DNA of 64,000 nt from Escherichia coli (lineage in GTDB: Bacteria; Pseudomonadota; Gammaproteobacteria; Enterobacterales; Enterobacteriaceae). A program made the translations under genes and the position numbers. The notes beneath the pieces were generated by a model. It searched no databases and was not told the origin of the DNA. It worked only from the letters and a program-made list of their open reading frames with translations. Location: assembly GCF_002854065.1 (NCBI RefSeq), contig NZ_CP024147.1. One strand, given 5' to 3'. This document shows positions 56,701-63,111 of the stretch, in pieces; within the stretch, counting starts at the first letter, position 1; the number at the start of each line of letters is the position of its first letter.

Positions 56701-56953
56701 AGATATCGAAATCTATTAACATTATCTTTTCAATTCTTCCCACTCACCTGAATAATTTTAGCAGGTTAAAATCTGAAAATATGTTACGCAATAAAAGTTA
56801 ATATATAATTTACAGCTATAAATATCAGCATAAACATGCTTATATCATAACTATTTATTTATATTTTCCAACTCAAACCGTCCTTGTCATCATAAAACAT
56901 TCACCATATAAATATTATCCTTTGCCTTTTTCTCACCTTATCCCTTTAAAAAT

Positions 56954-57170: not shown

Positions 57171-57854
57171 ATGAATCTAAAAAAGACACTATTAAGCGTG
57201 TTAATGATATCGCCACTCTGCATATTGACAGGGTGTGACTATATTGGAAAAGCAAAACTAATCGACGATCTCTCCAAACAACAAGAGTTGCAAAAAGGTA
57301 AAATAGAGCAACTTGAAAAACAACAAGAACAAGATAAACGCAAGATAGAACTATTTGAAAAACAGCAAACTGCCATCATAAATAGTACCAAAACGCTTGC
57401 TAGTGTGGTGAAGGCGGTTAAAGAAAAGCAGGATGAATTTGTCTTCACAGAATTTAACCCAGCACAAACACAATACTTCATTTTAAATAACGGCTCTGTC
57501 GGTTTGGCGGGTCGGGTGCTGGCTATTGATGCAGTTGAAAACGGCAGCGTTATTCGTATTTCGCTGGTCAACCTATTAAGCGTTCCCGTATCAAATATTG
57601 GTTTTCATGCTACATGGGGCAATGAAAGGCCCACCGATGCCAAAGCTCTGGCGAAGTGGCAACAATTACTTTTCAATACCACCCTGAATTCCACTCTGCA
57701 ATTAATGCCTGGTCAATGGCAAGACATTAATCTGACATTAAAAGGCGTTTCGCCTAATAACCTGAAGTATCTGAAGTTGTCCATCAATATGGACAATCTC
57801 CAGTTCGACACAGTTCAACCTGCTGAAACTCGGCAGCGAAAAAACAAAAAATAA
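57171..57854 (+). CDS. Inner-membrane lipoprotein with an N-terminal coiled coil, SadB-like (trimeric-autotransporter helper)
   Basis: 227 aa. Lipobox LTGC with Asp at +2 (CDY, an inner-membrane retention signal). A heptad-rich segment QQELQKGKIEQLEKQQEQDKRKIELFEKQQ follows. The gene lies immediately upstream of the TAA gene. Confidence 0.75.
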   Translation: MNLKKTLLSVLMISPLCILTGCDYIGKAKLIDDLSKQQELQKGKIEQLEKQQEQDKRKIELFEKQQTAIINSTKTLASVVKAVKEKQDEFVFTEFNPAQTQYFILNNGSVGLAGRVLAIDAVENGSVIRISLVNLLSVPVSNIGFHATWGNERPTDAKALAKWQQLLFNTTLNSTLQLMPGQWQDINLTLKGVSPNNLKYLKLSINMDNLQFDTVQPAETRQRKNKK

Positions 57855-57897: not shown

Positions 57898-60800
57898 ATG
57901 AACAAAATATTTAAAGTAATCTGGAATCCGGCGACGGGCAGTTATAGCGTTGCCAGCGAAACGGCGAAGAGCCGTGGTAAGAAATCTGGTCGCAGTAAGC
58001 TGTTAATTTCTGCACTGGTTGCGGGTGGAATGTTGTCGTCGTTTGGGGCAAATGCCAGTGCGACACTTGATGGAGGTTCATCTATTGAAGACCCATCAAT
58101 GGGTACTCGCTGGCTTGCAATCGGTGAGGGCGCAAAAGCAACATCCGCGTTACAAGGTGATGGATATACCGTTGCGATAGGGCTTAATGCACTAGCAGAT
58201 GGTCAGGGTAGTCTTGCATTCGGCTACGATACCCACTCATCGGGTGATCGTTCTATCTCTATTGGCCAATATGCTGAATCCGCAGGAAACAGAACCATTG
58301 CTTTCGGTAGTGGGTCCAAGGCAATAGGAGACTATTCGCTTGCATTAGGAGGAACTACCTATACAGGTGGTGACTACTCCATTGCAGTGGGTAGGGATTC
58401 GAGGGTAGAAGACGATGCTGATTACGCCTCCTCTTTTGGTTACGGCGCCAAGGCAGGCGGGGTCTATAGCATGGCATTCGGTTTCGAAACTAAAGCTAAT
58501 GCCGTTGACAGCCTGGCAATGGGACGACTAGCTACAGCCAGTGCAGCAAACGCTATTGCGATAGGTGCAGAGGCTGAAGCCGCTGAAAATGCGATGGCTA
58601 TTGGCAATAATGCGAAGGCAAAAGGGACTAATAGCATGGCAATGGGGTTCGGAAGCCACGCCGATAAAGTCAATACTATCGCATTAGGAAATGGCAGCCA
58701 GGCTCTGGCAGATAATGCAATCGCCATAGGCCAGGGCAACAAAGCTGATGGCGTGGATGCCATCGCTCTGGGTAATGGTAGCCAGTCGAGAGGCTTAAAC
58801 ACCATTGCCTTAGGCACAGCCAGTAATGCAACTGGTGATAAGAGTCTTGCGCTTGGTAGTGATACCACTGCCAACGGTATTAACTCCGTCGCATTGGGTG
58901 CAGGTTCCACTGCGGATTTAGACAATACCGTCTCTGTCGACAATAGTTCATTAAAACGCAAGATCGTTAATGTGAAAAATGGCGCGATCAAGTCTGACAG
59001 TTACGATGCCATTAATGGTTCACAGCTTTATGCCATTAGCGACTCGGTAGCACAAAGGCTTGGGGGAGGATCATCAGTAGATGTTGATGACGGTACTGTT
59101 ACAGCACCAACCTACAATTTAAAAAATGGTAGCAAAAAGAACGTAGGGGCTGCGCTCACTGTACTTGATGAAAACACCCTGCAATGGGACCAAATCAAAG
59201 GCAAATACAGCGCTGCTCATGGTACTAGTAGCCCAACTGCCAGCGTAATCACCGATGTTGCGGATGGCACGATTTCAGCCTCCAGTAAGGAGGCGGTTAA
59301 CGGCTCCCAACTGCAAGCTACCAATGACGATGTTGAGGCCAACACCACCAATATCACCAACCTGACGGATTCCGTTGGTGACCTTCAGGCTGATGCCCTG
59401 CTCTGGAACGAAACTAAAAAGGCATTCAGTGCAGCTCACGGCCAGGATACCACCAGCAAAATCACCAACGTTAAAGATGGCGACCTGACGGCTGGCAGCA
59501 CTGATGCCGTTAACGGCTCTCAGCTGAAAACCACCAACGATGCTGTGGCGACGAATACCACCAATATCGCCAATAACACTTCCAATATTGCCACTAACAC
59601 CACCAACATCTCTAACCTGACTGAGACGGTGACTAACCTTGGTGAAGATGCGCTGAAATGGGATAAGGACAATTGTGTCTTCACGGCAGCTCATGGCACC
59701 GATGCCACCAGCAAAATCACCAATGTTAAAGATGGCGACCTGACGGCTGGCAGCACTGATGCCGTTAACGGCTCTCAGCTGAAAACTACCAACGATGCTG
59801 TGGCGACGAATACCACCAATATCGCCAATAACACTTCCAATATTGCCACTAACTCCACCAACATCTCTAACCTGACTGAGACGGTGACTAATCTTGGTGA
59901 GGATGCTCTGAAATGGGATAAGGACAATGGTGTCTTCACGGCAGCTCACGGCACCGAGGCCACCAGCAAAATCACCAACGTTAAAGATGCCGACCTGACG
60001 GCTGACAGCACCGATGCCGTTAACGGCTCTCAGCTGAAAACCACCAACGATGCCGTGGCGACGAATACCACCAATATCGCCACTAACACTTCCAATATTG
60101 CCACTAACACCACCAACATCTCTAACCTGACTGAGACGGTGACTAACCTTGGTGAAGATGCGCTGAAATGGGATAAGGACAATGGTGTATTCACGGCAGC
60201 TCACGGCACAGAAGCCACCAGCAAAATCACCAACGTTAAAGATGCCGACCTGACGGCTGGCAGCACTGATGCCGTTAACGGCTCCCAGCTGAAAACCACC
60301 AACGATGCTGTGGCGACGAATACCACCAATATTGCCACTAACACCACCAACATCTCTAACCTGACTGAGACGGTGACTAATCTTGGTGAGGATGCGCTGA
60401 AATGGGATAAGGACAATGGTGTATTCACGGCAGCTCATGGCAACAACACCGCCAGCAAAATCACCAATATCCTGGACGGCACAGTCACTGCAACCAGTTC
60501 CGATGCCATTAACGGCAGCCAGCTTTATGACTTAAGCAGCAATATCGCCACCTACTTCGGCGGCAATGCTTCTGTGAATACTGACGGTGTGTTTACCGGT
60601 CCAACCTACAAAATCGGTGAAACAAATTATTATAACGTCGGCGATGCACTGGCTGCGATTAACTCCTCATTTAGCACGTCTCTCGGCGATGCCCTGCTTT
60701 GGGACGCTTCCGTAGATAAATTTAGTGCCAAACACGGTACTAATGGTGACGCAAGCGTGATCACTGATGTCGCAAACGGGGATGTTTCAAGCACAAGCTC

Positions 60801-63111
60801 TGATGCTGTGAACGGCTCGCAACTCTATACCACCAATAAGTACGTCGTAGATGCGCTGGGTGGTGGTGCCGAAGTCAATGCAGACGGCACCATCACTGCG
60901 CCGACGTACACCATTGCTAATGCTGATTACGATAACGTCGGTGATGCCCTGAACGCCATCGACACCACTCTCGATGATGCTCTGCTCTGGGATACGGACG
61001 CCGGTGAAAATGGTGCATTTAGCGCCGCTCACGGAAAAGATAAAACTGCCAGTGTAATCACTAACGTCGCAAACGGTGCAATTTCCTCCACCAGCAGCGA
61101 TGCTGTTAACGGCTCACAACTCTATACTACCAATCAGTACATAGTCGATGCGCTGGGTGGTGACGCAGAAGTTAACGCTGACGGCACCATCACCGCACCG
61201 ACTTACACCATTGCGAATACCGATTACAACAACGTCGGTGACGCCCTGGATGCGCTTGATGATAACGCCCTGCTGTGGGATGAGACTGCCAATGGCGGTG
61301 CAGGAGCCTACAATGCCAGCCATGACGGTAAAGCCAGCATCATCACTAATGTCGCTGATGGCAGTATTAGTGAGGACAGCACCGATGCAGTGAACGGTTC
61401 TCAGTTGAATGCGACGAATATGATGATTGAGCAGAACAGCCAAATCATCAATCAGCTTGCTGGTAATACCGACGCAACCTATATCGAAGAAAATGGCGCT
61501 GGTATCAACTACGTTCGTACTAACGACAACGGTTTAGCCTTTAACGATGCAAGCGCCTCTGGTGTCGGCGCTACAGCTGTAGGTTATAACGCTGTCGCGT
61601 CTGGTGCCAGCAGCGTAGCCATTGGTCAGAACAGCAGCAGCACCGTTGATACCGGTATTGCGCTGGGTAGCAGCTCCGTTTCCAGCCGTGTAATTGCCAA
61701 AGGTTCTCGTGACACTAGCGTAACGGAAAATGGCGTGGTGATTGGTTATGACACCACTGACGGCGAACTGCTAGGTGCATTGTCAATTGGTGATGACGGT
61801 AAATACCGCCAAATCATCAACGTAGCTGATGGTTCAGAAGCCCATGACGCCGTTACGGTTCGTCAGTTGCAGAACGCTATTGGAGCGGTCGCCACTACGC
61901 CAACCAAGTACTTTCACGCCAACTCAACGGCAGAAGACTCACTGGCCGTTGGTGAAGACTCGCTGGCAATGGGTGCGAAAACTGTCGTTAATGGTAATGC
62001 AGGTATTGGTATCGGTTTGAACACTCTGGTTCTGGCTGATGCGATCAACGGCATTGCTATCGGCAGTAACGCACGCGCAAACCATGCAAACAGTATTGCA
62101 ATGGGTAACGGTTCTCAGACCACCCGTGGTGCACAGACTGGCTACACCGCCTACAACATGGACGCACCGCAGAACTCTGTAGGTGAGTTTTCTGTTGGTA
62201 GTGAAGACGGTCAACGTCAGATCACCAACGTCGCAGCTGGTTCAGCGGATACCGATGCGGTTAACGTGGGTCAGTTGAAAGTCACTGATGAGCGCGTAGC
62301 GCAAAATACCCAGAGCATTACTAACCTGAACAATCAGGTCACTAATCTGGATACTCGCGTTACTAATATCGAAAACGGTATTGGCGATATCGTGACCACC
62401 GGTAGCACCAAGTACTTCAAGACCAACACCGATGGCGTAGATGCCAACGCCCAGGGTAAAGATAGCGTTGCGATTGGTTCTGGTTCCATTGCTGCCGCTG
62501 ACAACAGCGTCGCACTGGGTACAGGCTCCGTGGCCAACGAAGAAAACACGATCTCTGTGGGTTCTTCTACCAACCAGCGCCGTATCACCAACGTAGCTGC
62601 CGGTGTTAATGCCACCGATGCGGTTAACGTGTCGCAGCTGAAATCTTCTGAAGCAGGCGGCGTTCGCTACGACACCAAAGCTGATGGCTCTATCGACTAC
62701 AGCAACATCACTCTTGGTGGTGGCAACGGAGGTACGACTCGCATCAGCAACGTTTCCGCAGGTGTGAACAACAACGACGCGGTGAACTACGCGCAGTTGA
62801 AGCAAAGCGTGCAGGAAACAAAGCAATACACCGATCAGCGCATGGTTGAGATGGATAACAAACTGTCTAAAACTGAAAGCAAGTTGAGCGGGGGTATCGC
62901 TTCTGCAATGGCAATGACCGGTCTGCCGCAGGCTTACACTCCAGGTGCCAGCATGGCTTCTATTGGTGGCGGTACTTACAACGGTGAATCGGCAGTTGCT
63001 TTAGGTGTATCGATGGTGAGCGCCAATGGTCGTTGGGTCTACAAATTACAAGGTAGTACCAATAGCCAGGGTGAATACTCCGCCGCACTCGGTGCCGGTA
63101 TTCAGTGGTAA
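57898..63111 (+). CDS. upaG: Trimeric autotransporter adhesin (UpaG/EhaG/SadA family)
   Basis: 1737 aa. Extended signal peptide [29 protein letters not shown]...FGANA. YadA-like head repeats (NSMAMGFGS.., NTIALGNGS.., NAIAIGQGN..). DALL-type (DALLWD) and HANS (KYFHANS) motifs, and necks ([30 protein letters not shown]). C-terminal YadA anchor ending ...AALGAGIQW. Confidence 0.92.
59392..60470 (+). repeat. In-frame tandem repeat, 255-nt (85-aa) unit, about 4.3 copies, within the adhesin stalk
   Basis: Units start at 59392, 59647, 59902, 60157 and 60391. The spacing is 255, 255, 255 and then 234 nt. Copies are near-identical ([85 protein letters not shown]). Confidence 0.95.

Follow-up and report, generated by a model that had tools for sequence, protein, structure and literature searches.

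The stretch of Escherichia coli DNA analyzed here (64,000 nucleotides (nt) of contig NZ_CP024147.1, hereafter the window) carries on its plus strand, at 57898-63111, a gene for a type Vc-secreted trimeric autotransporter adhesin of the EhaG/UpaG/SadA type, recognized from its open reading frame (ORF), its translation and its Pfam domains. The 1737-amino acid (aa) product contains, within its stalk, an array of long tandem repeats, and the locus raises the question of what these repeats are, how they change and how quickly. We consider it likely that they are stacked spacer modules of the stalk, and that gain and loss of modules and of heptads produces an allelic polymorphism in the length of the fibre.

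Tandem Repeats Finder placed the array at 59424-60467, with a period of 255 nt, 4.2 copies, 91% matches and a score of 1703. The program also reported 21-nt micro-repeats at three sites (59557-59610, 59812-59865 and, as an example of the heptad repeat on the plus strand, 60067-60120; each with 2.6 copies and 72-78% matches), together with a row of period 234 at the 3' end of the array (60092-60524), and all of these rows lie inside the single ORF. To delimit units, we split the translated ORF at the motif DAL[LK]W, which starts units at aa 499, 584, 669, 754 and 832, equivalent to nt 59392, 59647, 59902, 60157 and 60391. The spacing of 255, 255, 255 and 234 nt is exactly that given in an earlier note on this DNA. 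Units 1 (59392-59646), 2 (59647-59901) and 3 (59902-60156) are each 255 nt or 85 aa long, unit 4 (60157-60390) is 234 nt or 78 aa long, and upstream of them lies a unit 0 of 73 aa (59173-59391) that begins NTLQW and has 94 aa in close relatives; all five are on the plus strand.

The finer anatomy described in the earlier note was also recovered. The quoted substitutions are all present (DNCV versus DNGV, KDGDL versus KDADL and NTTNIS versus NSTNIS), the 21-nt micro-repeat recurs within units, and the 234-nt unit does lack one 21-nt heptad: unit 4 has five heptads where unit 1 has six, and is without one heptad of the triple VATNTTN-IA(N/T)... The 21-nt gap of unit 4 can be placed in eight equivalent ways, because the flanking AATAT[C/T]GCCACTAACAC is itself a direct repeat. 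The description of the repeats as 'near-perfect' fits the protein better than the DNA, where unit 1 is 88.6% identical to units 2 and 3, units 2 and 3 are 94.5% identical to each other, and unit 4 is 95.7% identical to either of these. Exact stretches common to units measure 37-100 nt, the longest in the array being a 100-nt exact repeat on the plus strand with copies at 59574-59673 and 60084-60183. All of the repeat periods (21, 234 and 255 nt) are divisible by three.

Unit 2 also holds the only cysteine among the 1737 aa, residue 593 (window position 59674), within its DNCV motif. This residue is polymorphic: the window and strain CUWW06 have Cys, and strain 100416 and the majority of other alleles have Gly. 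Trimerization would set three Cys593 thiols at the same level of a DALL2 domain.

Comparison with crystal fragments of the Salmonella adhesin SadA shows how each repeat is built. An 85-aa unit consists of a DALL2 connector, a long neck and a coiled coil made of 'efg' plus exactly six heptads. Over 73 aa, covering the DALL2 and neck parts, the unit matches SadA fragment 2YNZ at about 60% identity (E 2e-18), and the same parts match fragments 3ZMF (E 7e-12) and 2YO2 (E 1e-11); the Asn-rich coil weakly matches the SadAK3 fragments 2WPR and 2WPQ (E 7e-5 and 6e-4). The coiled-coil register was fixed from both ends with Table 2 of PMC4786415, in which VAGLAEDALLWDESI of SadA DALL2 reads abcdefg and then the beta-layer, and the SadA long neck reads beta-layer and then efgabcdefg. 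In the units, AVN is followed by GSQ (efg), by heptads ending in VTNLGED and by the beta-layer ALK of the next DALL2, with the register unbroken over exactly 6, 5 or 3 heptads. The Asn-at-d heptads proposed in the earlier note are thus borne out: heptads whose a position is aliphatic and whose d position is Asn (for example, IATNTTN) run in a register continuous with their flanks. Layers of this type (N@d) number three, all consecutive, in an 85-aa unit; the 78-aa unit has two of them and unit 0 a single one. The N@d asparagines in SadA fragments coordinate an anion in the core (Hartmann et al. 2009, summarized in PMC4786415). Given this arrangement, only whole-heptad changes preserve the register at both ends of the coil.

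The array is continued downstream by three diverged units of 297, 288 and 288 nt (60391-61263, plus strand; starts 60391, 60688 and 60976). These correspond to the more diverged repeats of about 290 nt that the earlier note had followed to roughly 61350, and we find that they extend to about 61264. They keep the DALL2 connector and the neck, with an FGG-type insert in place of the Asn-rich coil, and the FGG-like stretch aligns to AtaA fragment 3WPA and to SadA fragment 2YO2.

To see how the array varies, we split at the same motif the 120 cluster representatives returned by one protein search, and compared 14 RefSeq chromosome assemblies as well. Written as unit lengths in aa and beginning with unit 0, the EhaG-type arrays among the representatives are (94,85,85,85,85), (94,85,85,85,78), (73,85,85,85,78), which is that of the window, (94,85,85,78), (94,85,92,78), (94,85,78,78), (94,85,85), (94,85,78), (94,85) and (87,78). 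UpaG-type arrays in the same set have five to seven 78-aa units. Among the chromosomes, the EhaG-type array has one unit in BE2-5, two in the O157:H7 strains FRIK804, EH41 and EC11, three in an O169:H41 strain and four in 100416 and CUWW06, and the differences in unit number appear as clean 234- or 255-nt gaps. Given these arrays and gaps, the strain-to-strain variation anticipated in the earlier note is real at the level of both units and heptads; alleles range over one to four modules of five to seven heptads each, in units of 78, 85 or 92 aa. The two-unit form (85+78) spans 35 of 60 evenly spaced rows drawn from 3,115 matching complete genomes, which extrapolates to roughly 1,800-2,000 complete genomes and includes O157:H7, enterotoxigenic E. 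coli, animal and environmental strains. Orthologues of unit 1 in other alleles are 96-100% identical. All of the variant alleles examined are in frame except one, the ehaG of strain 158274-3 (L006, NZ_CP159137.1), which is annotated as a frameshifted pseudogene of 4877 nt.

These comparisons also bear on the phrase 'one copy shortened' used for unit 4, which presumes a direction of change. Most EhaG-type alleles have the 78-aa terminal unit, and in UpaG-type alleles a unit length of 78 aa is standard, so that this unit is an old feature and not the product of a fresh event. The direction of the 85/78 difference cannot be called, and it may be the 85-aa length that is derived.

Two further observations from the survey concern junctions and whole alleles. 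P0043 and P0045 (1496 aa, array 87,78) have a hybrid 87-aa unit in which the Asn-rich heptads of unit 0 are joined to the tail of a later unit, showing that crossovers, or assembler joins, are possible inside the heptad tract between dissimilar units. The complete O157:H7 genomes TR01 and FRIK804 have ehaG alleles that are 6% different, with units (94,76,78) versus (94,85,78), a contrast suggestive of recombination having replaced the allele within a single serotype.

The most direct view of a recent change comes from the closest relatives of the window. Across the 7.8 kb on the 5' side of the adhesin gene, the window is 100% identical to 100416 and 99.9% identical to CUWW06. Within the gene itself, two differences separate the window from CUWW06, a single-nucleotide polymorphism (SNP) at 59292 and a 63-nt deletion; when 16 kb are compared, there are two SNPs, a 4-nt TTTA indel and the same deletion. 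The deletion takes three heptads from unit 0 (94 to 73 aa). A 17-nt exact direct repeat, CCAACACCACCAATATC, bounds the deleted segment, with a single copy remaining at 59339-59355 (plus strand) and marking the deletion junction relative to both CUWW06 and 100416. This structure bears the signature of slippage or short-homology deletion, and a slippage-type change such as the earlier note had predicted is thus seen in this very allele, upstream of the part of the array that the note described. The deletion is no one-off sequencing error, because the exact 1737-aa protein (P0001) is found on seven contigs, one of them longer than 1 Mb (the window allele, on a 4.64-Mb contig) and six from draft assemblies, and the adhesin DNA is identical in both of the contigs with this protein that we retrieved. 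The TTTA indel, the only other indel in the 16 kb, lies in the yibL-sadB intergenic region at 56852-56860, in AT-rich sequence 5' of the sadB-adhesin operon, where the window and 100416 read CTATTTATTTATATTTT and CUWW06 reads CTATTTATATTTT.

From the anatomy of the array, we infer two routes by which its length could change. Occasional unequal homologous recombination between similar modules (89-96% identity) would add or remove whole 255- or 234-nt modules, and the exact stretches shared by units exceed the generally accepted minimal length for RecA-dependent recombination in E. coli. At the smaller scale, the 21-nt heptad codon repeats would allow heptads to be added or removed by short-homology slippage, the 11-17-nt direct repeats within them being suited to a RecA-independent process. 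Products of either kind should stay functional, because the reading frame and the coiled-coil register are both kept. The outcome would be an allelic length polymorphism of the fibre. We estimate a heptad at about 1 nm and a module, with its 45 coiled-coil residues and its DALL2-neck knob, at roughly 8-10 nm, so that a four-unit stalk would be some 15-20 nm longer than that of the common two-unit EhaG. It is plausible that fibre length determines the reach of the adhesive head past O-antigen or capsule. Since lipopolysaccharide and fimbriae mask SadA function (review PMC7247748), selection could plausibly act on the distance that the fibre projects relative to surface polysaccharide.

How quickly such changes occur is a separate matter, and part of the evidence hints at rapid change. 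Proteins that differ by no more than five residues from a 1758-aa reference carry deletions of 21, 78, 85, 163, 170, 248 and 262 aa; the 85-aa and the 170-aa deletions each have four breakpoints on these near-identical backgrounds, and two sub-lineages, one marked by A12S/D348G and the other by G1264V/A1348S, show recurrent deletions. Some variants are recurrent as well (P0031 on 12 contigs, P0009 on five).

Several observations weigh against module gain and loss as a common route to these differences. The length ladder on near-identical backgrounds consists of draft contigs only, and it cannot be confirmed in finished genomes because CUWW06 and 100416, the only complete genomes with this head variant, both have four units. 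One of these variants, the two-unit draft GCA_005041505.1, differs from the window by two SNPs in 8.6 kb and has a gap of 510 nt that falls exactly on the 100-nt exact repeat, which is also the place for an assembler to skip a loop; since a RecA crossover and a loop-skip would both act there, the two causes are inseparable by sequence alone. The warning in the earlier note that the array is prone to assembly collapse was therefore legitimate. In complete genomes, alleles of different unit number differ by 1-7% elsewhere in the gene, from which it follows that most differences in unit number are old or arose through allele replacement. Units 2-4 have diverged by about 5%, and clustering follows position instead of genome, so that neither recent in-situ duplication nor homogenization is evident. 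Concerted evolution within the allele was considered as an alternative and rejected, as units 2-4 are no more alike within than between alleles.

Taken to their conclusion, these points would describe an array that is essentially stable, with copy-number differences being old alleles spread by whole-gene replacement and the draft ladder a result of assembly collapse. The prevalence of 85+78 in diverse strains, the 1-7% divergence elsewhere in the gene, the grouping of units by position, the 6% difference between TR01 and FRIK804 and the position of the 510-nt gap in GCA_005041505.1 all fit this explanation. It does not account well for the 63-nt deletion, which separates alleles one SNP apart, one in the complete genome of CUWW06 and the other on the 4.64-Mb contig. 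Moreover, the six draft contigs with the identical four-unit 1737-aa allele indicate that short-read assemblers can traverse the array correctly, and several of the length variants are found on more than one contig. We therefore regard full stability as improbable, although it survives better than the other alternatives.

At the opposite extreme, the stalk could be a fast-evolving length dial, with eight or more fibre lengths on one clonal background (no more than five aa differences). Were this true, crossovers would be concentrated at the 100-nt exact repeat, selection would fit the projection of the head to the thickness of O-antigen or capsule, and SadB would be needed to hold three chains of near-identical modules in register. 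We judge this to be unlikely, slightly more so than full stability. Stronger still would be a contingency locus, in which units and heptads change frequently within clonal populations to give heterogeneous fibre length and antigenicity. At least eight architectures are indeed found among backgrounds with 99.3-100% identity in their non-repeat parts, and the events recur in both sub-lineages. Simple-sequence contingency tracts differ, however, from these repeats, whose units are long, at 21, 234 and 255 nt, and share just 72-96% identity; a single architecture prevails in about 1,800-2,000 complete genomes; a 1709-aa allele is present on more than 1,000 contigs, with its length variants being singletons; and the 1737-aa allele is identical in seven assemblies. 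With periods of 21, 234 and 255 nt, the adhesin repeats contained no simple-sequence tract for frameshift on/off switching in the alleles examined. Such a locus thus seems very doubtful, and the rapid or within-population variation envisaged in the earlier note is unsupported in view of the prevalence of 85+78, the clustering of units by position and the divergence of units 2-4. Least credible of all is an assembly artefact in the window, produced by false duplication or collapse of units: mis-assembly is a known problem of repetitive adhesin genes, and BadA was under-called by Sanger sequencing (PMC8859334), but the 85, 85, 85, 78 array recurs in the independent RefSeq chromosomes CUWW06 (complete) and 100416 with units 99-100% identical by position, the exact gene is found in seven assemblies, and the units bear distinguishing substitutions, with the longest exact repeat being only 100 nt.

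Our preferred reading therefore remains that of stacked spacer modules whose number, and whose heptads, change occasionally. As judged from the sequences compared, the array is polymorphic on an evolutionary scale, and phase-variation-like switching is without evidence.

The identity of the gene, which the earlier note had given as an EhaG/UpaG-type adhesin, is upheld by its domains, its locus and its neighbor. In Pfam, the YadA anchor (PF03895) scores 68.4 bits at aa 1677-1737 against a cut-off of 22.7, and YadA_head (171.8 bits over 12 stretches), YadA_stalk (425.1 bits over 14 stretches) and ESPR (59.4 bits) are likewise above their cut-offs; the ESPR signal occupies aa 1-48. A scan of NCBIfam returned generic trimeric autotransporter adhesin models only, all below their cut-offs, and none specific to EhaG or UpaG. 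In RefSeq, this allele type goes under the name 'YadA-like family protein', and the two-unit and commonest related alleles under 'EhaG' or 'ehaG'. Immediately upstream, at 57171-57854 on the plus strand, the ORF list includes a gene for a sadB-type inner-membrane lipoprotein of 227 aa, whose end is separated from the adhesin gene by 43 nt. The lipoprotein matches the SadB crystal structure PDB 4C47 (E 1.6e-72), and its orthologues are labeled DUF3251 or SadB-YajI family lipoprotein in RefSeq. The gene order in the two closest genomes, CUWW06 and 100416, is mtlA-mtlD-mtlR-yibT-yibL-sadB-adhesin-lldP. A sadBA-type operon between mtl and lld is found in Salmonella, Shigella and Escherichia (PMC3953254), and the E. 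coli members of the sadBA-linked adhesin group are UpaG and EhaG (review PMC7247748). The position between mtl and lld, the upstream sadB and the DALL2/long-neck stalk modules are all present here, and within the EhaG/UpaG/SadA orthologous group the ORF at 57898-63111 represents the sadB-linked trimeric autotransporter adhesin of E. coli. By homology to the trimeric crystal fragments of SadA and AtaA, the protein would be displayed as a homotrimer on the cell surface.

Two further observations concern the head region and the opposite strand. The head region (57898-59170) is its most mosaic part, and this head variant is found at ≥99% identity in only two of 5,426 complete genomes. Two of the compared alleles, that of FRIK804 (L009) and L013, differ by an 84-nt (28-aa) indel near gene position ~651, besides many smaller ones; indels in the head region are probably whole YadA-head repeats. 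On the minus strand, a 387-aa ORF at 59275-60438 covers the entire repeat array, and is most likely no gene, just a by-product of a repetitive, stop-poor codon composition.

The practical value of these findings is mainly in annotation and typing. Given that length differences in ehaG and upaG consist of whole stalk modules or heptads, gene length alone is no sign of truncation, and short-read assemblies of these genes warrant caution. The allele series, with one to four modules, is a natural set for testing how fibre length relates to adhesion behind O-antigen or capsule, and it could also probe the need for SadB in register control; Grin et al. (PMC3953254) suggested that SadB helps to set the register of three chains with near-identical repeats.

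Among known systems, the closest to this allele is EhaG of O157:H7 (1588 aa), which shares the sadB-adhesin locus between mtl and lld, the domain order and the unit types. At the DNA level, its first 85-aa unit is 98% and its terminal 78-aa unit 95% identical to those of the window, and EhaG-type length classes share about 98-100% protein identity over approximately 900 C-terminal aa. The two differ in unit number, which is two in EhaG (85+78) and four here (85, 85, 85, 78), in the length of unit 0 (94 versus 73 aa) and in the head region, where this allele has a different mosaic variant with many indels and about 7-8% mismatches. UpaG-type alleles (1750-1909 aa) are positional orthologues that share the DALL2-neck-coiled-coil module principle and the anchor (review PMC7247748). 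Their modules, however, are of 76-78 aa (five heptads), number three to seven and have junction sequences unlike those of this allele, to which they are about 54% identical in the N-terminal part and about 87% in the C-terminal part. SadA of Salmonella enterica, whose fibre structure has been assembled from crystal fragments, has the operon with SadB, homologous DALL2/long-neck modules and N@d coiled coils (2WPQ, 2WPR); it belongs to another species, has 1461 aa, and differs in the lengths and numbers of its units. SadA is highly conserved within Salmonella, and the size of Saa varies between Shiga toxin-producing strains of E. coli (both in review PMC7247748).

A more distant parallel is BadA of Bartonella henselae, a trimeric autotransporter in which the number of neck/stalk domains varies between strains from 18 to 34, with the differences attributed to recombination and slipped-strand mispairing, and in which too few repeats were called in short-read and Sanger assemblies (PMC8859334). 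BadA is far larger, has different domain types and is flanked by pseudogene copies that serve as recombination partners, nothing comparable to which was seen here. Repetitive stalk modules in SadA, UpaG and EhaG, and extensive allelic sequence variation of upaG and ehaG, have already been described (PMC7247748, PMC3953254). Strain differences in the number and length of modules are nothing unusual in this adhesin family. Current understanding of the family is unchanged, and the array in the window is a known feature of a known gene, present here in a rare four-unit allele.

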